A DNA stretch of 64,000 nucleotides. Origin: an uncultured Akkermansia sp. (GTDB taxonomy: Bacteria > Verrucomicrobiota > Verrucomicrobiia > Verrucomicrobiales > Akkermansiaceae). Positions 28,413 through 64,000 of the stretch are shown here, piece by piece. The translations under genes and the position numbers were made by a program. How positions within the stretch are numbered: position 1 is the stretch's first letter; the number at the start of each line of letters is the position of its first letter. The stretch spans positions 6,706-70,705 of the forward strand of contig CANQSS010000005.1 of the NCBI GenBank assembly GCA_947626545.1. The letters run 5' to 3'. The notes beneath the pieces were generated by a model. That model searched no databases. It saw only the letters and a list, made by a program, of their open reading frames with translations, and was not told the origin of the DNA.

Positions 28413-28415
28413 CGT

Positions 28416-29015: not shown

Positions 29016-29090
29016 ATCCGTGTGGTACAGATGTTCCCTCGTCGTGGTTTTTCTTTTATCCTTGATACATCTAAATCAAAGGTATCAAAC

Positions 29091-29888: not shown

Positions 29889-32868
29889 GGCTGATTGCTT
29901 TGTAGATTTTATCTGTCAACGCGTCGATGTTTTTCTGAATCGCTTCCGATGTCGGGTTGAGTTTTAGGATCGTTTCCTTCAATTCTTCTCGCGAGTATGG
30001 ATGTGGCTGCTGTTCATACTCAACCCATACTTCTTGTTCATCCCTCACGGGCATCTCATAGCGCCATGGTTTATTGTGCCACACGGCGATAGGTGAGGAT
30101 AGTATCTCCTTTCCGTCAATTTTGATGGATTTATAGTCAAGCCACACCGGGAACCTCTTACCTTCAAAACGTACATCCGGCCCCATAAAATTCAGAGTGA
30201 GATTGCCATCCCCACTGGTGAAAATCTTTATTCTCTTCTTGTCTGTTGTACTTGTCAGAACTCGTCCTTCACCCTTCGCATCGCAAAACCAACTCGGTGC
30301 TGTGATCGTGCAGTTCCGTGCTTCAATCGCGATGGCGTTTTTTTCTGTGCCAACATTCTTGATATCAATGCGCGCCTGTTTCAGCTGATCTAAAATGTGT
30401 TCTTTGAGCAATGATTCGGTACTCTTCAACGGACGATGACCTCTACACCAATCTAACAACATTAATTTCTTCCTAGGTTTATAATATTCGCCGGTATCTA
30501 TATCGTAGGCTAACTCAGGAAGTTTAATTTGCTGTCCCATAAAAAGATTAATGTGTTGACTGCTCCAATGAGATGTCCCACTGGCAGGAGTAAATGTCAT
30601 TTCTCCAAATTTGACTTCCCCATTATTAAGGAGGTAAAAATCCACTCGAACATAGTTAAATCCATCGGATAGCTTTTCTGCCAGCTGAATCATCAATTCA
30701 AGATTAGCAGGTTTGGGAATGGTTTTAGTGTCTAAGGGATAAGAAGACGTAAAATCCTGCTTCTCCCATTGTCGGTTATAAAACGCCACCTTCAAACCAG
30801 ACAGATTTCGCTCGGATAAAAATTCGATATAGATGACTTTGCCATTAAAACAAAAAAACTTGTAATCATACAGATCATTTGTTCCTTCATTTTCAAGGTA
30901 GGCCTCAACAAGAATCTTAGGTTTGATATCCCGATAATGAAGCTCAAAACCATTCTTAAATGCAAAGTTCTCACACATCCACCTATCCACCTTCTGCTTG
31001 GCATCGTTGAGATCAAGTTGAGATTTGTCTCTGACTACAATATTATAGCCACAACCATGGTTGCATTTAATCACGAATTGATTGGGTAACTTTTCAAAAT
31101 TAATGTCTTCGAACTGATCATAAACGCCTAACAGTGGAATAAGATATTTCTCGCCGATTTTCTCTTTCACCCATTCACGCACAAGATATTTGTCAGCCAG
31201 CCTCGTCTTGATAGGCGTTGAATCATAGAGCTTGAGCCACTGAATCTTCTCGTTAAATGTTTTTGGAGCTCTCAAATTCAAGCGCCTACCCGTCTGTTTT
31301 TGAAACCATTCAGAAAGAGCAACGGCGTAGTTGACTATTTTAGTTTCCAAGTTAATAAATTGCACTCCTCTGAAATTGCATCTACTTCCGAAAAACCATT
31401 CCTTGAGTGCTTTTTCGGAAGCTGCTCCCAGTGAAACTTGCAAAACGGATGCGATTTTATCCGATGAGATGAACCGTCTGATTAAATTCTCGTCTGTAGC
31501 ATTTTGAACGACAAAGTGTACTTTGGAGGCCTCCTCCTGAACAATTTCTTGTAGCCGTTGCTTGTTAGAATCCCATGAAACCGACAAGTCAAAAACGCAG
31601 CACACCCGCTGGGAGTCTCGTATCGAAATCCTGTTCCTGACGTAGCTCAAATAGAATAACACAGAATCCGATAATGAAGGCTCTACGGAGATGGGGATCC
31701 CCATGATAGAACGCTTTTTGTATCCCCCTGTAAATTTGATTTGTGCATACGGAATGCCCAGGATCTGCTTTACTTCCATATCTGAAGAATAGCGATGCTT
31801 CCACAAAGTAAGTCCCAGGAAGCGGAATTGTATCGCGTTAGAGCTTACCCGCATACCTGATAGGCGTTTTGCTTGCAGAATCCGGCAGACGACCTTGTAG
31901 TCATGATTGCTGATGAGGTGTGCGATAAAATAGTACGAAGGAGAATACCTTTTCAGGAATTCCTGCACAGCCGGGGTGTTGTCAAAGTGATTCTTAATAT
32001 ATTGCTTGATGGAATCGAAGAAAAAGCGCTTCTTTTCATCACCCGTTACCCCATACGTCTTCAGGTGCCATATATAGGAAAACAGGATCACAGCTTTAAA
32101 GCCTGCCTCGCAGGCGGGAAACGCCGGGTATTGCCGGCATCTCTCGAAAGAATATTCATACGCCTGAATAACACAGGACAAATCCTCCCCTTTCGTCAAC
32201 CTCGTGTTCCCTTTGCGGTTGTGACGATAGTAATAGTAAGCCTTGTTATGCACCATCATTCGGTCAGCAGCTATGGCAACCTCATAGGCAAAGCTTGCAT
32301 CGTTTGTGTTTTGAATCGTCTGGAAGCGGATCTTGTTCTTGATCAGAAATTCTCTTCGATATATTTTGTTGAAAGGATAAACAATCAGGCTCCATATAAA
32401 ATTTCCTAAATCTCTTGCATTGAAAATTTTACCCTTACAGAAATCAGTAACAAACAGTTTCGAAAAAGGACCCTCATAATTCATTCGTTGTCCAAAATCG
32501 TTGTAAAAGCCGCAGAAAAGGACATCTAATCTGAACTTTTGAGTGAGAGCGTAGAGTTCTTCGAGCATGGTCACATCACAGTAATCATCCGGGTCAAAAA
32601 ACATAACCCATTCGCCTAGGGCGTGGCCAAGCCCTGTATTACGGGCGGAGCCGGCAAATGAATGTTTGTTCCGGAAGAGCCGGATACGGGCATCTTTTGC
32701 CATGAACTCGCGAATAATGTCCACTGACGCATCTGTAGAGCCATCATCCACACAAATAACCTCAATCTCCCGCAAGGTCTGGTTCAGCAGACATGACAGC
32801 GAATGCTTCAGGTAGGCTGCCACATTGTAAACGGGCAGAATGACTGATACTTTTACTTCATCTGGCAT
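29878..32868 (-). CDS. Three-module protein: GT2 glycosyltransferase + TupA-like ATP-grasp amidoligase + C-terminal beta-rich domain
   Basis: 996 aa. N-terminus is VSVILPVYNVAAYLKHSLSCLLNQTLREIEVICVDDGSTD (GT2). The middle is FNEKIQWLKLYDSTPIKTRLADKYLVREWV...FVIKCNHGCGYNIVV...YDYKFFCFNGKV (TupA-like ATP-grasp). The C-terminus contains AVWHNKPWRY. Confidence 0.88.
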   Translation of the reverse strand: MPDEVKVSVILPVYNVAAYLKHSLSCLLNQTLREIEVICVDDGSTDASVDIIREFMAKDARIRLFRNKHSFAGSARNTGLGHALGEWVMFFDPDDYCDVTMLEELYALTQKFRLDVLFCGFYNDFGQRMNYEGPFSKLFVTDFCKGKIFNARDLGNFIWSLIVYPFNKIYRREFLIKNKIRFQTIQNTNDASFAYEVAIAADRMMVHNKAYYYYRHNRKGNTRLTKGEDLSCVIQAYEYSFERCRQYPAFPACEAGFKAVILFSYIWHLKTYGVTGDEKKRFFFDSIKQYIKNHFDNTPAVQEFLKRYSPSYYFIAHLISNHDYKVVCRILQAKRLSGMRVSSNAIQFRFLGLTLWKHRYSSDMEVKQILGIPYAQIKFTGGYKKRSIMGIPISVEPSLSDSVLFYLSYVRNRISIRDSQRVCCVFDLSVSWDSNKQRLQEIVQEEASKVHFVVQNATDENLIRRFISSDKIASVLQVSLGAASEKALKEWFFGSRCNFRGVQFINLETKIVNYAVALSEWFQKQTGRRLNLRAPKTFNEKIQWLKLYDSTPIKTRLADKYLVREWVKEKIGEKYLIPLLGVYDQFEDINFEKLPNQFVIKCNHGCGYNIVVRDKSQLDLNDAKQKVDRWMCENFAFKNGFELHYRDIKPKILVEAYLENEGTNDLYDYKFFCFNGKVIYIEFLSERNLSGLKVAFYNRQWEKQDFTSSYPLDTKTIPKPANLELMIQLAEKLSDGFNYVRVDFYLLNNGEVKFGEMTFTPASGTSHWSSQHINLFMGQQIKLPELAYDIDTGEYYKPRKKLMLLDWCRGHRPLKSTESLLKEHILDQLKQARIDIKNVGTEKNAIAIEARNCTITAPSWFCDAKGEGRVLTSTTDKKRIKIFTSGDGNLTLNFMGPDVRFEGKRFPVWLDYKSIKIDGKEILSSPIAVWHNKPWRYEMPVRDEQEVWVEYEQQPHPYSREELKETILKLNPTSEAIQKNIDALTDKIYKAISHAK

Positions 32869-32912
32869 AATGTATCATTTTGTTTTTTATTCCATCTTCC
32901 GAACGAGGTATA

Positions 32913-33992
32913 TTAATTCTCAAGTGTCTTCCACACGGTCACCCCGAAGAAGTTAATCTTCCGGGTGGTTTCCAAAAAATTAATTGATACGACCGGGATC
33001 CCCAGAAAGTAGTATCGAGTCCTTTCGGGGGAAATTTTGTGTATGGTCAGCACTCGTACTGCTCCAAATAGCATATAAGTTTTCTTAGATGTCTTGAATG
33101 GTTCAGGAGGAGGGGGCGGGACCTTCTTGACAGGAGGAATAACTATTTTTTCCTTAATGGATAAATTAAAAAGATCGTTGAAATTAAATTGATAAAATCC
33201 CCAATGATCTTTGTAAACTACGGTCATGTCTTTTCCACGAAAGAACGCCAGAAGATCACAAATTCCACTACGCAAAGCATGAATGGAGTGACAATTCAAT
33301 CCGAGCCAAAGAGCCTCTTCTAAGCTCATGTTCAAATGTATGGCTCCTTTAAGAGGAAACGGATGAAGAGCGTTGATGATAACTTTCAATCCCTGCCTTG
33401 CATACTCTGCGATTTCCTTTTCCCAGTATGCATCAATTTCTCTCGTCATCTGAAATTTATCCCCACATTCAGGAATTAAAAGAACCATCTGAGAAAGCTG
33501 ACCCAGTTGCGATACCCTATTCATGAACTCAGTCGACACCGTAATATTATCTGACTTTGGGCGTTCAAAATAATCCCAACACGAAGAAGGGATCTGCAAA
33601 AGATATTCAAAATAATTGCGCATCCTGAACGTTTGTCTATTGATCGCCCTACGAGGATCCAATTCCCTATGATTTCCAAAAAAGGCGACCCAAACTGCCC
33701 CCTTACGTAAACGAGGCGTCTGATCAGAAATTGCTGTCAACCTATCGCATGCAATCCCAGAAAAACCCTCAGCCGCAAAATCCAATACATCATAGTCATC
33801 CACTCCGTACATCTTCATGATAACTTCGTGACTCCGACGGATCAGGAAATGAAAGGGTCCTCCCCATCTCTGCTCCATATATCGGCGTAAACCTAGATAA
33901 ACCAAGGTGTCACCGCATCCGGCAGATAGCAGAATGTAATACTTCTCCGGGTCAAGACGAATATTCGAGAGACGTACGATTGGTTTACTCAT
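32913..33992 (-). CDS. Hypothetical protein, paralogue of 38876..39820 (possible glycosyltransferase-like fold)
   Basis: The ORF 32913..34019 start codon reads TTG. I prefer ATG at 33992 (MSKPIVRLSN...). It shares ALRSG(I/L)CD(L/V)L and surrounding similarity with 38876..39820. Confidence 0.65.
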   Translation of the reverse strand: MSKPIVRLSNIRLDPEKYYILLSAGCGDTLVYLGLRRYMEQRWGGPFHFLIRRSHEVIMKMYGVDDYDVLDFAAEGFSGIACDRLTAISDQTPRLRKGAVWVAFFGNHRELDPRRAINRQTFRMRNYFEYLLQIPSSCWDYFERPKSDNITVSTEFMNRVSQLGQLSQMVLLIPECGDKFQMTREIDAYWEKEIAEYARQGLKVIINALHPFPLKGAIHLNMSLEEALWLGLNCHSIHALRSGICDLLAFFRGKDMTVVYKDHWGFYQFNFNDLFNLSIKEKIVIPPVKKVPPPPPEPFKTSKKTYMLFGAVRVLTIHKISPERTRYYFLGIPVVSINFLETTRKINFFGVTVWKTLEN

Positions 33993-34094
33993 AACAGGTA
34001 AAATATGTGGGCTGACCAAATTGTTTCCCGCTGAAATTTTCCTCCTCTTTTTGACTTCTGCGGGATTTCAAATACGTATTAATACTTAAATTCA

Positions 34095-36197
34095 TCAACT
34101 AAAACTTACTCGGTTAATTGTTTCCTTAGCATCCCTGATCAAAATCTTTAGCTCCCTCTTACGCTCGATAAGTTTTCTCCTCTTTTTACCAACACTAAAT
34201 AGAATTCGCATACGAATTCTTCTCAACTTTCTTTCCAGTTGAGGCAACACTTCCATGGCACGTAAAATTTCCTTCATTTTTTCTTCGCTACAGCTTATTA
34301 ATTTCTGAAATTTTACCCCACTGTCGCTAATTAATTTCTGAAAATCCGGAATCTTCTTTTCACTCTCGGACTTTTGGAACAGTTCCTTCTGTATGTTCGC
34401 GATGTGTTCATAAAGGATCGTTTCATAAAATGGAGTTTTACGTGCATAGTGCCAAAAATAAGTGCTCAGAGGATCATCATATGCACTGTTCCACGGTTTT
34501 TTGTGTCCACAGTAATGAACAATCCAAGGATCTCCTCTGCTAGTCAAGTATTCAAACAAGTCTGAGGCGGCCATCTTTTGCATCCAATCGTTTACATGCA
34601 AGGTTATTGAAGACTCAACGTTCCACCTGACGTCCAAAAACGATGTTCTTCCCTTGAAAACTATATTCATAACATCTTGATCATTGAGTCTTAAGCTGCC
34701 AACTCTTTTCTCGAGTGTTTCAAGCAGTTGTGAAAGTATGTCCTCTCTGACCATTTGTCGGACGTTCATTAGCAGAACTCCCGCATTAAAATACTGCTTA
34801 ACATTGTCCAATCCAATCACCTCCCTAACGTATTTCCTCCAGAAATCTGAAACATTAGATAACAAGCACAATCCTCTATCTCTGATTACCGCTGCTAGTG
34901 AATTATTATCCAATTCGGTTTCATACAACTTTGCTACATCTCTTTTTACAACTAAGTCGCAATCTAAATAAAGGAGCTTATCGTAATTTTTAAAAATTAG
35001 CGGAATGAAAAACCTGTTGTAAGTGTTGATGGAGTGGTACGATTTAGTTTGAAAGATGTCAGGTAATGATGCAAAATAGGGTTTAACGTTGACGAATCGG
35101 ATCAATATATTCTTTTTTTGTAATTGTTTAATCAAGTTTTGATCTTCCAAAGACATTTCCTGATACAAGATGCAAATATCATAATTATTTGAATCCGAAG
35201 CATTTTCTATCAGAGACTGTATGGTCGTGACCAGATATGGCAAATAACGCTGATTTGAACTCAAACAAACAGCGATATTTTTCTCACTGAAGCCAGGTTC
35301 AACAGTCGGACATTCAAGTACAGGTGTCTCTTCTACAAGTGTCCTCTTCAATTCCAACACATTCAGATTTTTTGTAGTTTTGTTGTGGAACAGCCATATT
35401 CCGAACAATCGCTCGGCAATATATCCTATTACCCTCGTTTCTTGAACATTGTATCGTGATATATCAAGCTTTTTTTCTACTTCAAACAAGATTGTAAAGA
35501 GCCATTGAGCAAACTCGTGAAACAACTCGCGCCGCATTACAAAGCAGTTTGTGAAATATCCATACTTTTGGGAGTTATATTTTTTTGCGCTCTCTACATT
35601 TTGAGGGGAGATTTCCTCCATCACTTGCAAGGCAATCTCGTAGTCATGAATGTGGTGAAATTTCTTGTACTGCTCATATACAGTCTGAACTTTCGCATAT
35701 CCCACATCTAATTTTTCGGCCACAGCAATGTCGTAATCTTTTACGACGTTGGTAATCTGCTCACGCGTCAGGTGGAAGGTCCGGACATACCCGTCGTCCA
35801 TCTTTCGCCAAGTAATGACACCTCCTCCGTTCGGTTTGAGAGAATTATTCAAATCAAAGCACAGATGCCTTCGGTAGTGCATAAGACCAATATAATCAGG
35901 GTCTCCTAATTTATCATAATTCTTCCATGCCCAATACAAAGCTGTTAATTCACAATATCTACGATTCAGGTGAGAAATATTCTCGCCCGTATCATCACCA
36001 AGGGATATATTGTCAATCATCCACTGATAATCATCAGCAGATATGTAGCCATCTCTTGTGGCCTCTCTTGCGATCGCCCTCCCTGTATGGATGGGAACTA
36101 AGATATCGCTCTTGAGGAGGGTAGCCGGTTTGTTATATGCAACCAATATTTTTACTGTGGGTTGGGTTTTCATTTTATAGTTCGATTGATTTTTCAC
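34095..36197 (-). CDS. Bifunctional DUF4422 + GT8 glycosyltransferase
   Basis: 700 aa. N-terminus is ILVAYNKPATLLKSDILVPIHTGRA...CELTALYWAWKNY...GLMHYRRHL (DUF4422). C-terminus is IAVCLSSNQRYLPYLVTTIQS...YLDCDLVVKRDVAKLY...YFNAGVLLMNV (GT8). The start may be the internal MKTQPTV (9th codon). Confidence 0.88.
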   Translation of the reverse strand: MKNQSNYKMKTQPTVKILVAYNKPATLLKSDILVPIHTGRAIAREATRDGYISADDYQWMIDNISLGDDTGENISHLNRRYCELTALYWAWKNYDKLGDPDYIGLMHYRRHLCFDLNNSLKPNGGGVITWRKMDDGYVRTFHLTREQITNVVKDYDIAVAEKLDVGYAKVQTVYEQYKKFHHIHDYEIALQVMEEISPQNVESAKKYNSQKYGYFTNCFVMRRELFHEFAQWLFTILFEVEKKLDISRYNVQETRVIGYIAERLFGIWLFHNKTTKNLNVLELKRTLVEETPVLECPTVEPGFSEKNIAVCLSSNQRYLPYLVTTIQSLIENASDSNNYDICILYQEMSLEDQNLIKQLQKKNILIRFVNVKPYFASLPDIFQTKSYHSINTYNRFFIPLIFKNYDKLLYLDCDLVVKRDVAKLYETELDNNSLAAVIRDRGLCLLSNVSDFWRKYVREVIGLDNVKQYFNAGVLLMNVRQMVREDILSQLLETLEKRVGSLRLNDQDVMNIVFKGRTSFLDVRWNVESSITLHVNDWMQKMAASDLFEYLTSRGDPWIVHYCGHKKPWNSAYDDPLSTYFWHYARKTPFYETILYEHIANIQKELFQKSESEKKIPDFQKLISDSGVKFQKLISCSEEKMKEILRAMEVLPQLERKLRRIRMRILFSVGKKRRKLIERKRELKILIRDAKETINRVSFS

Positions 36198-36259
36198 GCG
36201 TTTCTCCTGTCATCTTGACTTCTATAGCGATTTCTCAGTTTTTATTGTCTTTTATCTGT

Positions 36260-37423
36260 CTATTTTTGCCAATTCAGCGTCGTTTCTATTTTCGCGAAAC
36301 ACTGTAAAGCCGCTTCCACTGTCTGATCCATATTGAAATATCGGTAGGAGGCAAGGCGGCCGAGAAAGTAAGTATTGGGTAAGGAGGATGCGAGTTGTTG
36401 ATAACGGCGATAGAGGGCGTCGTTTTCTGCAGATGGAATGGGGTAGTAAGGTTCGTTCTGACCGGGAGAGTAGGCGCAAGGGTATTCACGCGAGATGGTG
36501 GTATGTGGTGTTTTCTCGTCCATGAAGTATTTGTATTCCACACTTCGAGTGAAGTCATAGTTGCAGGGGAAATTGATTTGAAGACCAGACTGCGCAAACT
36601 CACGTGGCAAATTTCGGAACTGAATATCCAGACTTCGATAGGGGAGTGCGCCAAACTTGTAGTCGAAAAACTCATCAATCGGTCCTGTGAAGAAAAGCCG
36701 GTCGTAGGAAATCGTCTCCTTCACATCCGACCAATTCGTGTTGAGTCGTAGCTCAATGAGCGAGTGATCAATCATACGTCGTGCCAGCGCCGTATAGCCC
36801 TCGGACGGGACGGCCTGATACGTGTCACGAAAATAACGATCGTCGCGCCCAATGCGTATCGGCACGCGTCCACTCACGGAAGAATCCAGCTGCTCCGCCG
36901 TCAACCCCCACTGTTTCATCGTATACCCGGCAAACACCTTTTCATAGATAAAATCTGCCAGCTGGCGAAGATCCGCCTCTTCCGTCTCACGCAGTCTGAG
37001 GATGGGTACCTCCGTGTTAAACCCGAATGCCGCGATCAATTTTCCCTCGATGCGTGTTGCCATTGTGCGTGGAAAGAGCGCATGCAGTGAGTTGAGATTG
37101 AAGGGCACCGGCACCTCCGTACCATCCACCACCGCCTTCACACGGGACATGAATGGGTGCCATTCCGTAAAACGGCTCACATAGTCCCACACTTGTTTAT
37201 CATTCGTATGAAACACGTGTGGACCGTACCTATGCACCGTCACTCCTGTTTCGGGCTCCTTTTCATCGTAGATATTGCCGCCGATATGGGCGCGTTTGTC
37301 GATGATGAACACAGACTCGCCGAACTGAGAGGCTATACGCTCCGCCACGACCATGCCGGACAGACCGCAGCCTACCACAAGATTCTTCACGTGTTCCTTC
37401 TTCGATATATTCATAGAGTGCAA
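36260..37423 (-). CDS. glf: UDP-galactopyranose mutase
   Basis: 387 aa. VVGCGLSGMVVAERIA (FAD fold), IDKRAHIGGNIYDE, HRYGPHVFHT and GRLASYRYFNMDQ. Confidence 0.92.
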   Translation of the reverse strand: MHSMNISKKEHVKNLVVGCGLSGMVVAERIASQFGESVFIIDKRAHIGGNIYDEKEPETGVTVHRYGPHVFHTNDKQVWDYVSRFTEWHPFMSRVKAVVDGTEVPVPFNLNSLHALFPRTMATRIEGKLIAAFGFNTEVPILRLRETEEADLRQLADFIYEKVFAGYTMKQWGLTAEQLDSSVSGRVPIRIGRDDRYFRDTYQAVPSEGYTALARRMIDHSLIELRLNTNWSDVKETISYDRLFFTGPIDEFFDYKFGALPYRSLDIQFRNLPREFAQSGLQINFPCNYDFTRSVEYKYFMDEKTPHTTISREYPCAYSPGQNEPYYPIPSAENDALYRRYQQLASSLPNTYFLGRLASYRYFNMDQTVEAALQCFAKIETTLNWQK

Positions 37424-54330: not shown

Positions 54331-56385
54331 ATGACTTCTCGTCACACTTTAACAGGTTTGGCTGTGCTGGGGCTTGCAGTGTGCGGTGTCTGCCCCGGTC
54401 AAGTTTCCCCTGCCACAACTGACCTGGCGCAACCTATCACTACCAACGCTAACTCAGCCATGATTGAAAATGATTATATCTCCGTAACGGTTGAAAAAGC
54501 CGGACGTAAGCTCGTGAGTGTCACCGTGCAGGATAAAATAAACGGTCGCTCATACTCCTTGGACAACGGTATCTTTTGTCTGGACGTGCTAGACGAAGCC
54601 CCCGATGAAGCCTGTTCAAAGAAAAAGGTAGCGGAGACGAGTCACCTGCTCACGGCATCGGATCTCATCTGCGGAGAATTGAGAGTTGAAAAGCTGAGCG
54701 CGCAGAAAAATGCTCGCCGACTTGTGGAACGGGTGGAAGGCACCCGCGTGCGCGTCCCCTTTGCTCTACCCGCCGATGGCAACCAGATCACTTGGTGGCT
54801 GGAGTTGCGGGATGGCATGCCGTACATACGCGTCGGACTGGACATCACGCCACAGCAGTTCGCCATGCCGGTGCGTAAGATCACGCTGCTCGATATAAAG
54901 ACTCAAGAGGCTCGTGTGGAAGGCAGCGTAAAGGGCGCACCTGTTGTGGCCGCCGGGAACCGCCTGTTTGCGGGCATGGAGCATCCGATGGGTCTGAGTG
55001 AAGTCACAGACAAGGGATTTACCTGCTCGCTGCCGCGCAAGACAGACCTACCGAGCCGCGCCGAGAGCAAGTTCTCCGCCGTACTCGGCTTCAGCGTGCC
55101 GGGACAGCTGCGACGCACGTTCCAGCTCGGTTATTTGAACTCCGAACGTGCTCGTGCCTACGCTCCTTTCCTTAACTACAACACCTGGTATGACATCGGC
55201 TATTTCACGCCATATGGCGAAAAGGCGGCGATGGACGCTGTGCGCTCCTTCGGCGAGGAACTCGTCGGAAAGCGCGGCGTGCAAATGGATTCTTTCCTTT
55301 TCGACGACGGGTGGGATGACACGGAAACGCTCTGGCAATTCCACAAGGATCTGCCCAATGAGTTCCGTAACATACGCAAACTTGCAGAAAGCTACAAGGC
55401 AGCCCCCGGTGTGTGGCTCTCTGCTTGGGGTGGTTACGGTCCGCCCAGGGATAAACGACTGGCGGCGGCCAAGGGTAAGTACGAAACCAATGAGGGAGGT
55501 TTTGCGCTCTCCGGTCCCAAGTACTACGAGTTCTTCCGCGACATGTGCCTGCATATGATCCGGGAAAACGGCATCAATCACTTCAAATTCGACGGCACCT
55601 CCAGCGAAGCTACTCCCGCAGAAGGTTCCAAATTCGGCACCGATTTTGACGCCATCATCGCTCTCATCGAGGAACTGCGCAATGAGCGTCCCGACATCTA
55701 CATCAACCTCACCACCGGTACGTGGGCTTCCCCATTCTGGTTCGGTATCGCCGACTCCATCTGGCGCGGCGGCTGGGATCACGATTTCTGCGGCGAAGGC
55801 TCTGCACGCAACCAGTGGATCACCTTCCGCGATTCCCAAATCTACGCCAATAACGTGGCCATCTCGCCGCTGTTTCCCATCAACTCGCTCATGACTCACG
55901 GCGTCATCTACAACAAGAGCGCGCGCAACTTGCAGACAACGGAGGGTGACGACCTGTCCAATGAGATCTGGAGCGGCTTTGGTCTGGGAACTCAAATGCA
56001 GGAGATGTACATCACTCCTTCTATGCTCAAGGCTGAGGAGTGGGATGTGCTCGCTGCCGCAGCGAAGTGGACTCGCGAGAATGCCGATGTGATGGTAGAT
56101 GCGCACTGGGTGGGTGGAGATCCTGCCGGCCTGCAAGTGTACGGCTTTGCCGCCTGGTCCCCGCGAAAGGGTATCTTGACGCTGCGCAATCCCTCCTCCC
56201 AGCCTCAGGAATTCTCCTTTGATCCTGCGGCAGTCTTTGAATTGCCGGTAGGTGCTCCCTCCTCTTACACTCTCTCGTCTCCCAAGGGTGACAAGCTCCC
56301 CGAGAGTGTGCAGGCCGGCAAGACGACTACTCTCAAACTTGAGCCTTTCCAGGTTCTCGTTATTGAGGCTTCTCCGGCCAAGTAA
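54331..56385 (+). CDS. Secreted glycoside hydrolase, alpha-galactosidase-like (clan GH-D-type TIM barrel); specificity unknown
   Basis: 684 aa with a signal peptide (LAVLGLAVCGVCPG). FLFDDGWDD and INHFKFDG motifs resemble the GH27/36-type catalytic region. Confidence 0.6.
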   Translation: MTSRHTLTGLAVLGLAVCGVCPGQVSPATTDLAQPITTNANSAMIENDYISVTVEKAGRKLVSVTVQDKINGRSYSLDNGIFCLDVLDEAPDEACSKKKVAETSHLLTASDLICGELRVEKLSAQKNARRLVERVEGTRVRVPFALPADGNQITWWLELRDGMPYIRVGLDITPQQFAMPVRKITLLDIKTQEARVEGSVKGAPVVAAGNRLFAGMEHPMGLSEVTDKGFTCSLPRKTDLPSRAESKFSAVLGFSVPGQLRRTFQLGYLNSERARAYAPFLNYNTWYDIGYFTPYGEKAAMDAVRSFGEELVGKRGVQMDSFLFDDGWDDTETLWQFHKDLPNEFRNIRKLAESYKAAPGVWLSAWGGYGPPRDKRLAAAKGKYETNEGGFALSGPKYYEFFRDMCLHMIRENGINHFKFDGTSSEATPAEGSKFGTDFDAIIALIEELRNERPDIYINLTTGTWASPFWFGIADSIWRGGWDHDFCGEGSARNQWITFRDSQIYANNVAISPLFPINSLMTHGVIYNKSARNLQTTEGDDLSNEIWSGFGLGTQMQEMYITPSMLKAEEWDVLAAAAKWTRENADVMVDAHWVGGDPAGLQVYGFAAWSPRKGILTLRNPSSQPQEFSFDPAAVFELPVGAPSSYTLSSPKGDKLPESVQAGKTTTLKLEPFQVLVIEASPAK

Positions 56386-56407
56386 GTTCCTTTATTTCCG
56401 TTTTCAA

Positions 56408-56443
56408 GGACCGCAACGCTCACCCCGCTGCGGTCCTTTTTTT
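56408..56443 (+). terminator. Rho-independent terminator after the glycoside hydrolase
   Basis: GGACCGCA / TGCGGTCC 8-bp stem with a 13-nt loop, followed by TTTTTTT. Confidence 0.65.
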
Positions 56444-56482
56444 CTTGCTGACATGCTCCTAATGTGATAAAAGGCGTGACTG

Positions 56483-57571
56483 ATGATACGCGAGCTGACT
56501 TTATCAGGTGTGACAGCATTTCTGCACGAGGCACACCTCGATTTCGCTGCAGGGATAAACGTGATTGTGGGTGGAAACGATACAGGAAAAAGCCACCTGA
56601 TGCGCCTGATGTACGCGCTATGCCGCTGGATGGAGCGGAGTCCACGCCGCGATTTCCCGGAAAAATGGGCTGAAGAACACCGCCTGCGCCGCTACCTGCT
56701 GCATTCCTTCGCCGCGCGACAGCTTTCCGCGCTCGTGTCCCGTCGCGCCAACACGGCCTCGGCCTGTGTTCATGCGTCCTTTAGGGGCTGCAAGGCACCG
56801 GACGGCTCTGCTGACGTCTCCTTCCGTTTCGATTCCCGCAAGGATGAAAATCCGGAGATTTCTTCCCTGCCTCAGCGTTTCCTGCAAGAGCGAGCTCTCT
56901 TTATCCCGTCGCGTGACGTGCTCACGCTCTTTCCCTGCTATGTGCAAGTGGGCAAGCACTACCCTGATCTGCTGGACGGCGCCACTTGGGATCTCTGCCG
57001 TGCACTGGAAGCGGGACCAAGCAAGACTGAGCATAGCGAGGCGCTACAACGCGTGCTCAAACTTATCCGTACCGTGCTGCAAGGCAAAATACAGCGGGGA
57101 GGAGGCTCACGGTTCTTGCTGCGCCGCGGCAAGGAGGAACCGTTGGAAATGAGTCTCATCGCCGAGGGCTTCAAGCGCGTGGGTACGTTGGGGCTGCTGA
57201 TCGAAAATGATGCGTTGCACGAGGGCGATACGCTTTTCTGGGATGAACCGGAAATGAATCTGAACACGACACAGCTCCCCCTGCTCTGCGGTATCATGCT
57301 TAGCTTGTGCGAAGCCGGTGTGCAGCTAATCATTACAACGCACAGTCTCTTCCTGCTGCGCGAGCTCATGATTCATCTGAACCGAAGTAGCTTCAGTTCT
57401 CTCCCTCGCCGCTTTATCGGCCTTCATGCGGGCACAGGACTTTTTGGCTCCGTGCAAGTACAGCAGGGTGAAAGTGCCGATGATTTGGGCCCTCTGGAAA
57501 GCTTGCAAGCCGAGATGGAACAAGCCGACCGTTACCTGAGTATGCCAACCCCTGCACCCTATGCCGAGTGA
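56483..57571 (+). CDS. ABC/AAA_21-type ATPase (SMC/RecF-like fold), standalone
   Basis: 362 aa. N-terminal Walker A VIVGGNDTGKSHL, Walker B TLFWDEPEMNLN, and H-loop region LIITTHSLFLL. Confidence 0.85.
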   Translation: MIRELTLSGVTAFLHEAHLDFAAGINVIVGGNDTGKSHLMRLMYALCRWMERSPRRDFPEKWAEEHRLRRYLLHSFAARQLSALVSRRANTASACVHASFRGCKAPDGSADVSFRFDSRKDENPEISSLPQRFLQERALFIPSRDVLTLFPCYVQVGKHYPDLLDGATWDLCRALEAGPSKTEHSEALQRVLKLIRTVLQGKIQRGGGSRFLLRRGKEEPLEMSLIAEGFKRVGTLGLLIENDALHEGDTLFWDEPEMNLNTTQLPLLCGIMLSLCEAGVQLIITTHSLFLLRELMIHLNRSSFSSLPRRFIGLHAGTGLFGSVQVQQGESADDLGPLESLQAEMEQADRYLSMPTPAPYAE

Positions 57572-58337
57572 GTCCTACCAACCCGGAGTCTCCTGTGTGG
57601 AGGGTGTGTACCGCTTCCAATTTGACGCGGGCTACCTCGTCTGCCGCTCCGAATGCTCTCCTTTCTACTCCCGCCACGCGCAAAACTTCTGCAACAGTTG
57701 CAAGGAGATGGACTTTATGCTCTACCACCCGGGCAAAAAGGAACTCTGGCTCATCGAGGTGAAAGACTACCGCTTTAACGCCCGTCCCAAGGTGCAGGAT
57801 TTGGTGGAAAAACTCTGCCGCAAAGTGCGCGACTCCCTTTTTCTGCTGCGTACGGCAGCGCTCTGCGCCCCCGATGAGGAACCCGCGGAGGGTATTTCTC
57901 TGCGCAAAATGGCTCGTCTGAGTTTGCAGGCCAAGCATATTCGCATTGCTTTCACAATTGAGCTGGGCGGCAGCGCCTTCTACCCGGCGAAAAGCCTGCT
58001 GGCGCACATACGTGACCTGCTTTACCGCCAAATCCGCTTCATCGATCCACAAATGATCTGCTTGCCCATCACAGAATCCGGCGGCATCGGACCCTGGCGT
58101 ATTTTCCCGGCCGGTAACGAACACTCGGCTCGCATCCAAAAGCGCATTGAAGAGGCTCGCCTCGCCCACGAACGCAAGCTAGAGGAATTACGCCGCAAGG
58201 CAGCTGCCGACCGAAAAGCAAGTCGCCGCAAGGATCACAAAACTCCCGCCATTCCTGTTTGGAAGCAGCGTGCCATGGAACGCGAAAGCGGCGTCAAACG
58301 CAACAAACGCAGAAACCGCAACGGTTCACCGTCATAG
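57561..58337 (+). CDS. Small PD-(D/E)xK-like protein with Cys-rich N-terminus and Lys/Arg-rich tail; partner of the ATPase
   Basis: 258 aa. The ATG overlaps the ATPase stop by 11 nt. EMDFMLYHPGKKELWLIEVKDY gives D-x13-E-V-K spacing. Cys positions are VCRSEC...FCNSC. C-terminal tail is RRKAAADRKASRRKDHK...KRNKRRNRN. Confidence 0.7.
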   Translation: MPSESYQPGVSCVEGVYRFQFDAGYLVCRSECSPFYSRHAQNFCNSCKEMDFMLYHPGKKELWLIEVKDYRFNARPKVQDLVEKLCRKVRDSLFLLRTAALCAPDEEPAEGISLRKMARLSLQAKHIRIAFTIELGGSAFYPAKSLLAHIRDLLYRQIRFIDPQMICLPITESGGIGPWRIFPAGNEHSARIQKRIEEARLAHERKLEELRRKAAADRKASRRKDHKTPAIPVWKQRAMERESGVKRNKRRNRNGSPS

Positions 58338-60017
58338 CCCCGCCCCCTTCTTTTCTCCTCGCTTCCTTCCCTTCCCTTTGTAGGGGACGTAGGAAGCCAC
58401 GACGACCGCCGGCACTTTGCGGATACGAGCGACTTCCTCCGCACTGAGTCTGCACTCCGGGTGCGCGGCATAAAAGCGTGCCATATGCTCTTTCACGATG
58501 GGCAGGAGGTGTTCTGTAATCTTCAAATAGCCCTCTCTGGTAAAGTGAGCCATGTCCTTGGTACGCAGTCGTACGTACTTTCCATGAAAATCGCCAAACG
58601 CTTCAAAACGTCCCCATTCCCCGGAAAAGACATCATCTGTGCGTAGGGATGAAGTGCCGTGTTTTTCGCAATATTCGCGCTGAGCTATCTGAGTTTCGTG
58701 CATGTACTGATAACGCTGCTCACCCAGCGCCGGCATCTGGATCCAAATGGCATCAGCACCGGCGTTGCGCACCATTTCCACCATTTCCGCCATCTTTGCA
58801 GCATACGCATCCCTCCACCTCTGTCCTCCGATCGGTACCACTCCCTCCTCGGTTACTATCGACTGTCTATCGTTCGCTCCGAAAAAGAAGATCACCATAT
58901 CCGACTTGTGTCGCCGTAATGTTTCGCGCAGCTGCATCGGCCAGTTGAAGAAGTCCGGACGACACAAGCCCGTGGAAACTCTCGCATTTATATAAAACTC
59001 CACCCCCTTGTACTCGCGCATGGATGAATGCATCACGGGCCCCAATCCTTCCATCATGGAATCCCCCACCATCTGGATGCGATAACGCATCGGTGGCAGC
59101 ATGCCGGGAGGAAGTATGGACGGCGCCGGATCTTGCACGACAGGAGGCGCATTCTTCTCCTCTTCAAGCGTTTCCTGATGCACTCGCTCAGACGGCGCTT
59201 CTTTCGTCAGACGTGGGGGAGCTTTCTTTCCCTGCCGGTTTCCTCCTGCTTCACCTCCTTCAGCAGCGGTAATCTGTGACATCTTGTGACTTTTGTGCGG
59301 CGGCATCTCCTGCTGATGTGTATCCTCATGCCGCACTTCCGCAATTTCCAGCGCTGGGTTAGACAAGCGAGCCCCCCCTTGGGTGCTGTCGGTACGCGCG
59401 TCAGATTGTTCTCCCAGCGCGCACTCCAGCACATCCTCCATGCTCAGAGTACCCGGCGGCGCGCTGATTACCAAGGCTCGCGTTTCTTTCTCACCTTTCG
59501 GTTCAATCCAGCGCCTGGACTGGGAAGTTTGGGCAGGTATTTTCGGAACGAGGCGCGATACCTCGGGCTTGACCAATGTTGGAGGCGCGTATTTCTCTGT
59601 TGTACTGAGCGCCGGTGTGTTCGGCAGTTCCGAAGCCACCGTGAGCCGCGCCGGCCTTTCATTCTGCAGGTTCTCCAGGTCATCCTGTCCCGACTCTAAA
59701 ATCGTTGCCATTGCTTCCGCCGGTTCCCCATCACGATCTTCTTCCCCTCTTGCCAGCGTCATTTCAAACTCGCGCGCCACATCATCCGCAAATGCTCTTT
59801 CCTCGCCATCCAACCATTCCAGCCCCGCCATATTGCCGAGCTTTTGCAGCATCTGGGGCACGTTCTGAGCCGAGCTGTACAGTGCCATGGAGGTCAGCTG
59901 CTCCTGCAGCCAATGCGCGCAGGAATCGGCGTTCTGCAACAGCAACACCACCCCGGCACATACTGCGGCGCCGCATGTAGTAATGCTTTTCGGGAACTTA
60001 GGGAAAGAGAATGGCAT
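58332..60017 (-). CDS. SGNH/GDSL (DUF459-like) hydrolase with long low-complexity N-terminal region (long paralogue 2)
   Basis: 561 aa. N-terminal anchor MPFSFPKFPKSITTCGAAVCAGVVLLL. C-terminal YRIQMVGDSMMEGLGP...FFFGANDRQ... is the SGNH block pattern. Confidence 0.8.
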   Translation of the reverse strand: MPFSFPKFPKSITTCGAAVCAGVVLLLQNADSCAHWLQEQLTSMALYSSAQNVPQMLQKLGNMAGLEWLDGEERAFADDVAREFEMTLARGEEDRDGEPAEAMATILESGQDDLENLQNERPARLTVASELPNTPALSTTEKYAPPTLVKPEVSRLVPKIPAQTSQSRRWIEPKGEKETRALVISAPPGTLSMEDVLECALGEQSDARTDSTQGGARLSNPALEIAEVRHEDTHQQEMPPHKSHKMSQITAAEGGEAGGNRQGKKAPPRLTKEAPSERVHQETLEEEKNAPPVVQDPAPSILPPGMLPPMRYRIQMVGDSMMEGLGPVMHSSMREYKGVEFYINARVSTGLCRPDFFNWPMQLRETLRRHKSDMVIFFFGANDRQSIVTEEGVVPIGGQRWRDAYAAKMAEMVEMVRNAGADAIWIQMPALGEQRYQYMHETQIAQREYCEKHGTSSLRTDDVFSGEWGRFEAFGDFHGKYVRLRTKDMAHFTREGYLKITEHLLPIVKEHMARFYAAHPECRLSAEEVARIRKVPAVVVASYVPYKGKGRKRGEKKGAGL

Positions 60018-60069
60018 CAGTATCGCGTAATGTGAACGAACATGGTCAATTGTTTACTGTAGATGAGTT

Positions 60070-60942
60070 TCAGTGACGGCGCGGGCTATTTGTTGTCCCC
60101 CCGCGGTAGCTTCGACTATTTCCGGCGCGCACAGTGATACCATGCACCGAGCCGCGCCCTGTAATACTTCGGTTGCCACGCATGGTGGTAGTGATCGGGG
60201 AGTATCCCATCACGATGCGACTCAAATCGGGAAGCAGGCGTTTCATCACGATCCGATTTCCCGCCGCCGTGATGTGCACACCATCTGGGGTGCGTATCGG
60301 CACCATGCTGCCGTCGGGCATCCGGGCCTGTTGGCAATATCTCCCTTCCCTATCTGCAAGTGCCGCGCGCGTATCAATGAAAGGAATCCTGGCTCTCTGA
60401 CAAACTCGCTGCATAAGCTTGTTAATCACGGCAAGCTTCGCATCCGTTTTCGCATCACTCACCACAGGGGGTCCCATGAGAACGAACTTGGCGCCACGGC
60501 TCAGGCTCAGCCGAGCTACTTCCGCTATCTTACCATAGTACTCCGCCAACCATGTCTTGCTGCCCACCTCCCCGATACTCGACATCCCGTATATTGCCTG
60601 CGAATCATTCGTGCCCACCCACATAACGACTACCTGCGGTCGATCGCTACGTAAGTGCTCTTCCAGCACGCGCGGCCAGTTGTAAAAATCGGCGCGTGCG
60701 AGACCGGATGATGACTTTCCGATCGGGATGAAGGTGAGATTGCTGTAACCGCTCAGCTCCGTGCGCATCTGCGGCCCCAACCCCACCATGAGGGAATCCC
60801 CCGCCATGAGCACCCTCTGCTCGCGCGGCAATTTCCCTTTGCCGCCGGGTTTCAGTCCCCACTCCCCGGCCTGTAGCACGTTCGTGACGCACACTACCGC
60901 CATCCACATCCATTTGAATGCCCTCTGTACGACTTGTTTCAT
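60070..60942 (-). CDS. SGNH/GDSL (DUF459-like) hydrolase, short form
   Basis: 290 aa with a signal-like N-terminus. RVLMAGDSLMVGLGP, MWVGTNDSQ and PDGVHITAAG. Confidence 0.85.
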   Translation of the reverse strand: MKQVVQRAFKWMWMAVVCVTNVLQAGEWGLKPGGKGKLPREQRVLMAGDSLMVGLGPQMRTELSGYSNLTFIPIGKSSSGLARADFYNWPRVLEEHLRSDRPQVVVMWVGTNDSQAIYGMSSIGEVGSKTWLAEYYGKIAEVARLSLSRGAKFVLMGPPVVSDAKTDAKLAVINKLMQRVCQRARIPFIDTRAALADREGRYCQQARMPDGSMVPIRTPDGVHITAAGNRIVMKRLLPDLSRIVMGYSPITTTMRGNRSITGRGSVHGITVRAGNSRSYRGGTTNSPRRH

Positions 60943-62705
60943 TGATGACCCTCAGTTGCTGCCGGTTGAGTCGTAGCTGCTGCGTCGCGCTTTTTTGGGG
61001 ATCTCGGGCGGATATATTGGCTGGTGTACACAGCCGGTACGCGGTGAATGCGCGCAACTTCCTCCGCGCTCAACCAGCGTTCCGGGTGCCGAGCGTAAAA
61101 AACAGACAAACGTTGCTCCACAATAGGTAGAAGATGCTCGACCAGCTTCAGATATCCTTGCTTGGTGAAGTGAGCCTGATCTTTGGTGCGCAGGCGTGTG
61201 TAGCTCCCGTTGAAATCGCCGTATGGCTCAAAACGCCCCCACTCGCCGGAGAGAAACGGATCTGTGCGCAGGGTAGTGATACCGTTGCTCTCACAGTACG
61301 CACGCTGGGCGATCTGCGTTTGGTGCAACAGCTTGTTGTAGGTTCCGCCCACCGCCGGTAATTCTACCCAAATGATATCAGCCCCCACATTGCGCGCTAT
61401 ATTCACCATCTCGTCCATTTTTGCAGCATACGCCGTTCGCCAGGCTTCTCCGCCGGTCGGCACAAGCCCGCGCTTCTGGCGAATGGGCATTCCATCATTC
61501 GCACCGATGAAAAAGATAACGAGATCCGGAGCATAGCGGTGTACCACGCTGCTCATATGCTGGGGCCAGTTGAAATAGTCCGGTCGGCATAAGCCCGTGG
61601 AATACTTGGCGCTGATAATGAACTCCAGTCCCCGACGATTGCGCATGACCCGGTGCATCACTGGTCCCAACCCTTCCATGAGAGAATCACCCAGCAACAA
61701 GATTCGACAACGCATGGGCGGGGTCTCACCGGGAGATGTCGGGGGGGCCGGTGGCTGCTGTGCGGTATGTTGCACCTGTTGTTGCCCTACGTGTGTGGTT
61801 GCCGTTTGCTGCTGCAGAGGCTGTAGCTGCGTGACATTCCCCATGGCAGCTAAACGCAACGGCTCTTTTCTCGGCCTTGCTGCCGGAGGAATGGCAGACG
61901 CGGTAAGCCGCGCCATCCTTCGACTCACGCGGTGTCGAACACCTTGGCGCTGTGTGTCCCGAGTTGCATGTTTTTCTGCGGCGACCCGCTGTTTCTGCTC
62001 CGGCGCGGAACGACCTTGTTCCGGGGTAGCTGCGCGTCTGCCACCGCCCTTCCCCAGCGCATACTCCAACGCGTCTACCATGCTCGGAAGACTCTGCGGT
62101 GTGCTGCTCGTCATTCTCTGCATATTCCACCCATGCTCCATTTCGCTAGGAAGCTGCTTAAGAAAAGGCGGCAAGTCTGCTACGAACTCAACCGTCGATT
62201 CCTTCCAAAGAGGGGTATCGGTGGTGCCCACCGGAACTGCAACCGGAGTTGTCCGAGCTTCACCGGACGACACCGTTTGAACTGATACCTTCTCAGTCTG
62301 TTTCTCTGCTACCGGAGAACCGGACAGCCAACTCCGTTGCTCCGGTAGGCTTACGATTTCATCCAAAATGACCTCTTCCTCCTCCAGGCTCATTTCTTCC
62401 TGAGCGGAGGAGGGACTATAGATGTCCTGTGCGCCCTCTGCTAGCGGCATCACCAACGCTTCGGACACTTTGTCCGCAAAGTGTTTTTCAGCGAGATCCA
62501 ACTTTTCCAAGTGCACCACGTTGCCAAATTGCTGCAGTACTTGTGGCGCTTCTTGCACCAGCCCGGTGAAGGAGGTGGCAAACAAGCGCTCCTCGAGCCA
62601 AAGAGCGCATGAGTTGGTATGCTGCATGAGCAGTGCCATTGTCGCACAAACCGCCCCTCCACATAGGGTGAAGCTATTTGACAATTTGGGAAGGGAGAAG
62701 AACAT
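60939..62705 (-). CDS. SGNH/GDSL (DUF459-like) hydrolase with long low-complexity N-terminal region (long paralogue 1)
   Basis: ORF 60939..63131 trimmed to ATG 62705 (MFFSLPKLSNSFTLCGGAVCATMALLM...). That start parallels the N-terminus of 58332..60017 and overlaps the MBOAT stop (TAATG). CRILLLGDSLMEGLGP, FFIGANDGM. Confidence 0.8.
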   Translation of the reverse strand: MFFSLPKLSNSFTLCGGAVCATMALLMQHTNSCALWLEERLFATSFTGLVQEAPQVLQQFGNVVHLEKLDLAEKHFADKVSEALVMPLAEGAQDIYSPSSAQEEMSLEEEEVILDEIVSLPEQRSWLSGSPVAEKQTEKVSVQTVSSGEARTTPVAVPVGTTDTPLWKESTVEFVADLPPFLKQLPSEMEHGWNMQRMTSSTPQSLPSMVDALEYALGKGGGRRAATPEQGRSAPEQKQRVAAEKHATRDTQRQGVRHRVSRRMARLTASAIPPAARPRKEPLRLAAMGNVTQLQPLQQQTATTHVGQQQVQHTAQQPPAPPTSPGETPPMRCRILLLGDSLMEGLGPVMHRVMRNRRGLEFIISAKYSTGLCRPDYFNWPQHMSSVVHRYAPDLVIFFIGANDGMPIRQKRGLVPTGGEAWRTAYAAKMDEMVNIARNVGADIIWVELPAVGGTYNKLLHQTQIAQRAYCESNGITTLRTDPFLSGEWGRFEPYGDFNGSYTRLRTKDQAHFTKQGYLKLVEHLLPIVEQRLSVFYARHPERWLSAEEVARIHRVPAVYTSQYIRPRSPKKRDAAATTQPAATEGHQ

Positions 62706-64000
62706 TAGAAGCGCATGTAAATGAAGGGCAGGATGCCATCCGGTCCAAGGTTCATGATGAATGCCACCACCAGCCCTGCTACCACGCCCTGGACAGCCCA
62801 TGGCAAGACACTCATCCCTCGCACTGTCCAGCGGTACAACTTTGTGCCACAAAACGACAACAGCACACCCCACACTGTTGCAACCAGCACGGCCAACGGA
62901 AAGCCCTCCCCCTCCGAAGCCCCCTCTGCTACTCGGCCCAGCACTGCCAGCGCGTCCGTCAATGTCTCCGCGCGGAAAAACACCCACAACAACGCTACCA
63001 CATGCATGGTAATCACCCAGCTTATGACGTTGCCAAGTCCACGCAGCGCATGGTTGCGTACCTGCCACCCGGCGCTCAGTCGGTGCCACGCGTGAACTAC
63101 CGCCAGCCCCGCGCCGTGCAATGTACCCCACACCAGAAAGCCCAGCGAACTTCCGTGCCAGAGGCCGCCAATGATCATGGTAATCATCAGGTTCACGTAA
63201 CGGTTACCCTTGCGGCTTCCGCCCAGTGGAATGTATAAGTAGTCACGCAACCAGGTGGACAGACTGATGTGCCAGCGATGCCAAAATTCTTGCAAACTGA
63301 GTGAGCGGTACGGTTCATCAAAGTTTTTGGGGATATGGAAACCCATGAGCTGAGCCACACCCATGGCGATATTGGTGTAACCCGAAAAATCGCAATATAT
63401 TTGCACACTGTAGGCATACACCGCCATGAGCGCCGCCGCCGAACTGTACTCATCCGGCGCGGCAAACACGCCATCCACCAAATGGCTCTGCAAATATGTG
63501 GCCATCACTACTTTCTTAAAAAGCCCACTCAATATGAGCACGACTCCTTCCGGAAAGTCTTCTTCTCCTGCAAAACTGGTCCGCAGTTGCGGGAAAAAAG
63601 TACTCTCGCGCATAATGGGACCGCTCATGACCGTAGGGAAAAAAGAAAGAAAACACAACACCTGCGCGTAACTTCGCGGTGCCAAGCCTTCCTCACGGTA
63701 ATGATCAATGGTGTAGGAAAGCCCCTGAAAGCTGTAGAATGAAAGCCCAACCGGCAGTACCCAAGATGCCAGATACGGATTGACGAGCCACTGCGCACTC
63801 GGGCCAATCAACTCGACAAGCCCTAACGCGGCCGCTTCGTAATACTTGAAAAAGGCTAGGATAAATACATGCGCCGCCACCGTCGCGCTTACCATGATTA
63901 GCCGCTTCCGCCGCCCTTTTCTTTCCATCGCGCGCACGCAAATCCAGTTAATGAACGCGATGAACAACAAAAACGGCAGGTATCCCACCCCCGCTAAGGC
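62705..64000 (-). CDS. MBOAT family O-acyltransferase (AlgI/PatA/DltB-like); N-terminus probably beyond the window
   Basis: WHRWHISLSTWLRDYLYIPLGGSRKGN...IGGLWHG signature. The frame stays open upstream of the GTG at 63988 to nt 64000. Confidence 0.88.
   Translation of the reverse strand, partial: ALAGVGYLPFLLFIAFINWICVRAMERKGRRKRLIMVSATVAAHVFILAFFKYYEAAALGLVELIGPSAQWLVNPYLASWVLPVGLSFYSFQGLSYTIDHYREEGLAPRSYAQVLCFLSFFPTVMSGPIMRESTFFPQLRTSFAGEEDFPEGVVLILSGLFKKVVMATYLQSHLVDGVFAAPDEYSSAAALMAVYAYSVQIYCDFSGYTNIAMGVAQLMGFHIPKNFDEPYRSLSLQEFWHRWHISLSTWLRDYLYIPLGGSRKGNRYVNLMITMIIGGLWHGSSLGFLVWGTLHGAGLAVVHAWHRLSAGWQVRNHALRGLGNVISWVITMHVVALLWVFFRAETLTDALAVLGRVAEGASEGEGFPLAVLVATVWGVLLSFCGTKLYRWTVRGMSVLPWAVQGVVAGLVVAFIMNLGPDGILPFIYMRF

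Follow-up and report, generated by a model that had tools for sequence, protein, structure and literature searches.

A stand-alone HEC-02-type ABC ATPase and predicted nuclease gene pair, probably an anti-phage defence system, in an Akkermansia chromosome

Two overlapping genes in the window

We analysed a stretch of 64,000 nucleotides (nt) from an uncultured Akkermansia sp. (GenBank assembly GCA_947626545.1, contig CANQSS010000005.1, positions 6,706 to 70,705 of the forward strand), referred to here as the window. Within it, two co-directional genes encode an ABC-type ATPase and a small partner protein predicted to be a nuclease of the PD-(D/E)xK superfamily. Both proteins are homologous to the components of HEC-02, a system with experimentally validated activity against phages, and we consider that the two genes probably constitute a stand-alone HEC-02-type anti-phage defence system in the Akkermansia chromosome. 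The original prediction, made from the letters of this stretch and its open reading frames (ORFs), had described an ATPase of 362 amino acids (aa) followed by an ORF of 258 aa; the coordinates and lengths of both were confirmed (Table 1), as was the 11-nt overlap between them, which reads ATGCCGAGTGA. The second ATG is not preceded by a Shine-Dalgarno sequence, and the overlap implies translational coupling of the two genes.

Across 81 loci from the Akkermansia clade, nearly all have a junction of -11 to +8 nt between the ATPase and partner genes. Hundreds of homologues were identified for both ORFs, with ratios of nonsynonymous to synonymous substitution (dN/dS) well below 1, which places the ORF pair far beyond what chance would produce. 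The two genes are passed on together, intact and closely coupled, and purifying selection acts on both. In agreement with the predicted backbone-like composition, its G+C content (0.56-0.57) equals that of the backbone (0.55-0.58), unlike that of a low-GC island elsewhere in the window (0.32-0.47).

Homology to HEC-02

HEC-02 (Hma-embedded candidate 02) is a pairing of an ABC ATPase with a NERD (PD-(D/E)xK) protein that was found inside Hma (helicase-methylase-ATPase) systems (Payne, Hughes, Fineran & Jackson; bioRxiv 10.1101/2024.01.29.577857). The HEC-02 system of Dickeya dianthicola NCPPB 3534 lowered the plaquing of several coliphages in E. coli by orders of magnitude, and both genes were needed; in the naming of that paper, A is the ATPase and B the small protein (bioRxiv 10.1101/2024.01.29.577857). 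We used BLASTP to align the Dickeya sequences given in Table S2 of the paper with the proteins of the window. The ATPase aligned to WP_024108366.1 with 30% identity over 354 aa (E = 9e-48) and all motifs in register, and the partner aligned to WP_024108365.1 with 28% identity over 155 aa (E = 1e-17), including the MD(F/V) and WLIEVKDYR segments. In RefSeq, the validated HEC-02B protein WP_024108365.1 carries the name "cysteinyl-tRNA synthetase," an evident misannotation.

Both proteins matched the HEC-02 models of PADLOC-DB, although its sub-models label A and B inconsistently. Residues 1-354 of the ATPase matched positions 1-342 of the 344-position model PDLC04146 (7.6e-63), and the protein also matched PDLC04213 over its full length (1.8e-59); residues 13-164 of the partner matched PDLC04145, a model of 170 positions (5.9e-20). 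PADLOC would flag the pair automatically. This homology supports the original prediction of an ATPase sensor and a PD-(D/E)xK nuclease acting as a defence module with Septu/PARIS-like logic. The same prediction had called the effector non-canonical; it does differ from the effectors of Septu and PARIS, but it is not undescribed, as the combination of an ABC ATPase with a NERD protein was published in 2024 and is present in PADLOC-DB v2.

The resemblance to HEC-02 extends to gene order and motif content. In Dickeya, as in the window, two co-directional genes overlap or abut with the ATPase gene first; the homology spans the whole length of the ATPase and the entire nuclease core; the same PADLOC models are matched by both proteins; and the Walker A motif, signature, Walker B motif, H-loop and D...ExK block are common to both. 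The Akkermansia pair differs in standing alone in housekeeping surroundings rather than nested within Hma, in being retained widely across one genus, and in having a nuclease of 258 aa rather than ~170 aa, with a PxWKxR tail and seven extra invariant cysteines. As far as can be told, Hma embedding was the context in which HEC-02 was discovered and is not a requirement of the PADLOC model. The Akkermansia pair is a stand-alone, extended, cysteine-rich variant of the already described HEC-02. Among the papers covered by our literature search, none followed up or renamed HEC-02, and none described it in Akkermansia.

The ATPase

Pfam identified the product of the first gene as a member of AAA_21 (1.1e-15) and AAA_15 (1.4e-08). 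It belongs to the ABC-type (AAA_21) ATPases and retains every nucleotide-binding motif: the Walker A motif GGNDTGKS, the Walker B motif LFWDEPE and the H-loop region occur as originally predicted, and a signature-like motif, S224LIAEGFKR, lies between the two Walker motifs. We based clade conservation counts on 80 ATPases and 78 partner proteins. Residues G30, G35, K36, S37, D254, E255 and E257 are invariant in all 80 ATPases; S288 is likewise present in 80/80, and H287 in 78/80.

Outside these motifs, the ATPase contains three blocks that vary within the clade (residues ~76-135, ~181-210 and ~301-362). Pairwise analysis (NG86) gave dN/dS of 0.07-0.2 for the ATPase. In the variable blocks the ratio was 0.35, versus 0.11 in the core blocks; no pair exceeded 1 (maximum 0.83), and thus no positive selection was detected in the variable blocks. 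Clade members share ~50% identity in the ATPase and ~72% in the nuclease.

The partner protein

The partner protein contains the motifs M50DFML and E66VK68, preceded by the cysteine pairs C28RSEC32 and C44NSC47. The MDFML...EVK motif named in the original prediction is thus present; however, its spacing is x11 (D51 to E66) instead of x13. The predicted cysteine cluster and highly basic tail are both there, the tail (residues 190-258) having 24 K/R residues versus 9 D/E.

A profile search with the partner identified 329 representative clusters, and we aligned 72 partner sequences spanning the family (25% mean identity). In this alignment, the three residues expected at a PD-(D/E)xK site are nearly universal: E66 in 72/72 sequences, D51 in 71/72 and K68 in 70/72. 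Positions conserved at ≥90% are F21, K48, D51, K68, D69, K88, D91, E134, D162 and W179. All 72 sequences matched PDLC04145, and 71 of them matched PDLC04228. Weak matches to Pfam NERD came from 12 of the 72 (best 5.2e-05), and Hjc, Mrr_cat_2 or HSDR_N_2, all of the same superfamily as NERD, were matched by a few sequences. The window protein itself had no match in Pfam or PHROGs and only a weak NCBIfam match to HYExAFE (0.055); when the PDB was searched by sequence with the protein, its family profile or the tail, matches were at chance level (JAK2, TRIM5) or absent. Distant relatives measure 167-185 aa and span positions ~8-180 of the profile. One apparent giant relative (P0129; 3,962 aa) was rejected as unrelated: it consists of ~59 near-identical 66-aa tandem repeats, and its profile score (5.7e-43) is the sum of weak matches to the catalytic block. 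This sequence is possibly an assembly or translation artefact.

AlphaFold modelled the core of the partner, from a deeper alignment, with a predicted local distance difference test score (pLDDT) of 92.8 and a predicted template modelling score (pTM) of 0.89. In this model, D51 opens a strand (52-56), the ExK motif lies in the following hairpin strand (61-70), and a helix (78-102) and a strand containing E134 (126-135) come next. In the NERD (PF08378)/PD-(D/E)xK superfamily, a beta-hairpin carries D...(D/E)xK, and a helix and then a strand come after it; the modelled topology fits the arrangement expected of such a site, and the partner family would form a distinct, distant branch of this superfamily. 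We therefore predict that the partner is a nuclease, based on its motif, its modelled topology, the published assignment and the weak Pfam NERD matches of its relatives.

The partner core is nearly frozen within the clade, with dN/dS of 0.01-0.08 and an entropy of 0.06-0.5 bits. In public gene calls the protein is unnamed, and its start is often placed at M53 (206 aa), 52 residues short; this start loses the N-terminal strands, the cysteine cluster and the predicted catalytic residue D51. Homology to the Dickeya HEC-02B protein begins at residue 10, which supports the 258-aa ORF.

Table 1. Features of the gene pair and its boundary, in window coordinates.
Feature	Position	Strand	Basis
HEC-02A-type ABC ATPase, 362 aa (Pfam AAA_21/AAA_15)	56483..57571	+	PADLOC, BLASTP, Pfam
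HEC-02B-type NERD-like PD-(D/E)xK protein, 258 aa; core ~8-189, clade-specific tail 190-258	57561..58337	+	PADLOC, BLASTP, model
Overlap of ATPase stop and partner ATG, 11 nt	57561..57571	+	ORF coordinates
Walker A / P-loop GGNDTGKS, residues 30-37	56570..56593	+	Motif
Walker B and D-loop LFWDEPE, residues 251-257	57233..57253	+	Motif
H-loop TTHS, residues 285-288	57335..57346	+	Motif
Predicted catalytic hairpin: D51 at strand start, E66-V-K68 in the next	57711..57764	+	Conservation, model
Clade-specific cysteine cluster C28-x3-C32-x11-C44-x2-C47, just before D51; candidate metal site	57642..57701	+	Conservation
Clade-specific basic helical C-terminal extension, residues 190-258	58128..58334	+	Alignment, model
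Intrinsic terminator (stem-loop and U7) ending the 684-aa gene upstream; 5' boundary of the unit	56406..56445	+	Folding

Comparison with other two-gene systems

Among the systems named in the original prediction, PARIS resembles the Akkermansia pair in combining an AAA_21-type ABC ATPase with a small nuclease, and residues 191-292 of the ATPase match AriA models (9.1e-17). In contrast to PARIS, however, the partner is PD-(D/E)xK/NERD-like, and it had no match to AriB, Toprim or DUF4435 in Pfam or PADLOC. Septu is likewise a two-gene operon of an ABC ATPase and a separate nuclease; here the match to PtuA models is confined to the P-loop region (residues 2-52; 4.5e-06), and the partner had no HNH or PtuB match. 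The ATPase also matched models from AbiL (AbiLi, 1.6e-10), PD-T4-4 (PD-T4-4_A, 1.1e-12), Menshen (NsnB, 8.3e-10) and Gabija (GajA, 1.8e-08). These systems, as well as HEC-01, HEC-03 and HEC-04, have other partner or effector domains (Toprim, PIN and others), and their scores are at least 40 orders of magnitude weaker than those of HEC-02.

A tightly coupled operon of two overlapping genes could also be a toxin-antitoxin (TA) or addiction module, in which the ATPase would continuously neutralise a nuclease toxin and the pair would persist by post-segregational killing, with no dedicated phage sensing. The Pfam entry for AAA_21 reads "putative AbiEii toxin, Type IV TA system," and the sister systems HEC-03 and also HEC-04 showed toxicity upon induction (bioRxiv 10.1101/2024.01.29.577857). 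However, the Pfam description is a historical label: neither protein matched AbiEi or AbiEii in the Pfam and PADLOC searches, and the partner matched no TA family. The chromosomal, vertical-looking persistence of the pair and its near absence from viral contigs do not suggest an addiction module, and the validated homologue cuts plaquing by orders of magnitude. This alternative also overlaps with abortive-infection defence and would not strictly preclude it. We regard it as very unlikely.

Distribution and genomic neighbourhood

The window proteins are 98-100% identical to those of a rabbit-gut Akkermansia metagenome-assembled genome. Close relatives of the partner occur in 195 species-representative genomes, of which the best 80 are all from Akkermansia, Akkermansiaceae or Verrucomicrobiales; the pair was identified in at least 80 species-level genomes of the Akkermansia clade. 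In all 86 Akkermansia loci, the gene directly upstream of the partner gene, and on its strand, encodes the ATPase. We also inspected 83 distant loci, comprising 80 metagenomic loci (relatives 27-35% identical), an additional contig from a metagenome and two viral ones; a homologous ATPase gene was directly upstream in 82 of them, and the exception was cut by a contig end. Around the pair in 14 of 35 long distant loci we identified Hma components, namely an SNF2/ResIII helicase with NOV_C, a DUF1156 methylase and a DUF499 ATPase; neither the DUF1156 methylase nor the DUF499 ATPase was detected in the window or in the Akkermansia loci (0/95).

The original prediction held that the pair is an autonomous unit bounded by a strong terminator and a convergent gene. 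The terminator is present, but its position needed correction from 56408..56443: the stem spans 56406..56438 and the run of seven U residues (U7) extends to ~56445. Of 200 shuffled sequences, none folded as well as this hairpin, whose predicted free energy is -18.1 kcal/mol (z = -3.84); a simple terminator scanner missed the hairpin because its outer loop exceeds 8 nt. The convergent gene was confirmed on the minus strand at 58332..60017 and overlaps the 3' end of the partner gene by 6 nt. An Rfam search of the window identified no RNA.

These boundaries bear on whether the pair might belong to a metabolic operon together with its neighbours, a putative glycoside hydrolase (GH) of 684 aa upstream and SGNH/DUF459-MBOAT carbohydrate or envelope genes downstream. 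The nearest relatives (L001-L011) do share the order GH, pair, SGNH/MBOAT; however, the terminator separates the upstream gene from the pair and the downstream genes are convergent. Moreover, both the GH-like and the SGNH/MBOAT flanks are kept in only 5 of 80 species-level loci, all of them nearest relatives. When we applied unsupervised clustering to the 3-kb flanks, we obtained 20 upstream and 11 downstream types, which occurred in 24 combinations across 48 loci. Other neighbours of the pair include ribosomal, PEGA and acyltransferase genes, a dehydrogenase gene, and ZnuABC genes with an integrase and type I restriction-modification (RM) genes. In other lineages, orthologues of the 684-aa gene have no adjoining pair, so that the adjacency is lineage-specific; this does not imply that the pair is absent from those genomes. 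Distant relatives of the pair, in addition, occur in Hma systems. The pairing of ATPase and partner is thus conserved without being bound to GH or SGNH genes, and with flanks reshuffled and 684-aa orthologues elsewhere lacking the pair, we rejected the metabolic-operon explanation, which we consider extremely improbable.

Several observations concern the neighbouring genes themselves. The 684-aa gene (window 54331..56385) has no Pfam match on record and is ~70% conserved across Akkermansia; NCBI names some of its orthologues "enterotoxin." Downstream, on the minus strand (window 58332..63131), three successive DUF459/SGNH-type genes (561, 290 and 730 aa by ORF) are followed by an MBOAT gene, and together they resemble a cluster for cell-envelope O-acetylation. 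In the 561-aa and 730-aa proteins, a similar C-terminal domain comes after a long low-complexity N-terminal region. In one Akkermansiaceae lineage (locus L091, 8766..16499), the genes directly after the pair encode an integrase, the type I RM proteins HsdR, HsdM and HsdS, and another integrase; this region looks like a shufflon-like defence hotspot. In another Akkermansia lineage (locus L180, 5004..6855), a different AAA_21 protein (294 aa) and a 279-aa protein are encoded just upstream of the 684-aa orthologue; this gene couple may be another ABC-ATPase two-gene module.

Features added in the Akkermansia clade

Relative to the wider family, the nuclease of the Akkermansia clade is longer (~255 aa versus ~170 aa elsewhere) and has acquired cysteines. 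Seven cysteines (C12, C28, C32, C44, C47, C86 and C167) are kept in 78/78 clade members, whereas the wider family has hydrophobic or acidic residues at these positions. The cysteines possibly form a zinc (Zn) or iron-sulphur (Fe-S) site. The tail is predicted to be a long basic helix followed by a terminal segment, has a dN/dS of 0.25-0.4, and contains a motif that is invariant in the clade, P232-x-W234-K235-x-R237. Pfam and PDB searches identified no relative of the tail, which possibly binds nucleic acid or docks on the ATPase.

Proposed function

Drawing on the analogous systems PARIS, Septu and Gabija and on what the HEC-02 authors proposed, we suggest the following course of action for the Akkermansia pair. 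Translational coupling would yield both proteins in a fixed proportion, and they would form a complex. The ATPase would act as sensor or regulator, and a phage cue may be recognised by its faster-evolving inserts (~76-135, 181-210 and 301-362). Binding or hydrolysis of ATP would then license the nuclease to cut nucleic acid, most likely DNA for a NERD-type enzyme, and phage replication would be stopped either directly or through the death of the infected cell.

Several points weigh against a role in defence, or against this account of it. Some concern the setting of the pair: it is surrounded by housekeeping genes in the window, it lies ~36 kb from the only other PADLOC-positive gene, a SIR2-like gene in the low-GC island, and a promoter scan identified no sigma-70-like promoter for it. 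Viral carriers of relatives amount to two contigs in IMG/VR (L097 and L098, with identities of 28% and 31%), which makes phage or prophage sequence a rare location for the family. Others concern the proteins. The original prediction had called for a structural check of a restriction-endonuclease-like fold, and the topology fits, as described above; nevertheless, Foldseek returned no significant match. Against the PDB, the best E-values were 0.15 for the full-length partner model (pLDDT 80) and 0.077 for the core model; against BFVD, the best match of the core model was an uncharacterised protein at 3.7e-3, also not significant. PD-(D/E)xK nucleases appeared only in the non-significant tail, which contained Hjc, EcoRV, HincII, FAN1, MUS81, cap-snatching endonucleases, CdiA-CT, Cdn1, Cas4 and RecU, and no claim about the fold rests on Foldseek. 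With identity to the validated HEC-02 proteins of only 28-30%, activity and target could differ, and we infer complex formation, trigger and substrate by analogy. Finally, the pair persists in at least 80 Akkermansiaceae species, and its nuclease is very conserved; such a pattern is uncommon among defence genes and is just as compatible with a housekeeping role.

Such a role would be that of a domesticated, HEC-02-derived pair serving genome maintenance (repair, recombination or chromosome processing) instead of phage defence. The breadth of the relatives within Akkermansia, Akkermansiaceae and Verrucomicrobiales is consistent with it, as are the backbone composition, the housekeeping flanks and the lack of any Hma context in the clade. 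The almost frozen nuclease is about as conserved as the neighbouring 684-aa gene (~72% and ~70%, respectively). Fe-S-containing repair nucleases exist in the PD-(D/E)xK superfamily, and the cysteines and basic tail added in the clade may be comparable to theirs. However, both proteins are homologous to a system that acts against phages, and the ATPase has diverged far more rapidly than the nuclease, with its changes gathered in separate surface blocks, a pattern that a sensor engaged in a conflict would be expected to show. The position of the pair has also been reshuffled, at times to a site beside an integrase and type I RM genes, and our species count, taken over genomes that carry the pair, does not establish "core" status in Akkermansia. 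We consider a purely housekeeping role unlikely, and a stand-alone HEC-02-type defence system probable.

A more specific, and doubtful, possibility is that HEC-02 became fixed in the Akkermansia clade as a stand-alone derivative that is inherited vertically and whose nuclease gained a Zn or Fe-S cluster together with a tail that binds nucleic acid. Such a pair might be a genus-wide "core" immune or genome-maintenance nuclease, that is, a defence system under domestication.

The low-GC island

The low-GC island occupies window positions 17000..37000 (GC 0.32-0.47), and its large ORFs are nearly all on the minus strand. Its sole PADLOC match is the ORF at 18675..19922 on the minus strand, which is ThsA/SIR2-like (1.3e-16). 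Nine further large island ORFs had no PADLOC match, and most of the island may therefore not be defence-related.

Significance

The literature on HEC-02 consists of one preprint, and the Akkermansia clade adds a large, diverged set of intact pairs (at least 80 species). This set maps which regions of the ATPase are constant and which are variable and points to candidate specificity regions. The cysteines and the basic tail of the clade hint at a cofactor or a binding function acquired in addition. For annotation, the partner gene is one that public records leave unnamed and often shorten, and its validated Dickeya homologue is misnamed. If a nuclease-based defence system is indeed this widely conserved, it could affect the phage susceptibility and transformability of Akkermansia, with relevance to probiotic strains, phage therapy and genetic tools.

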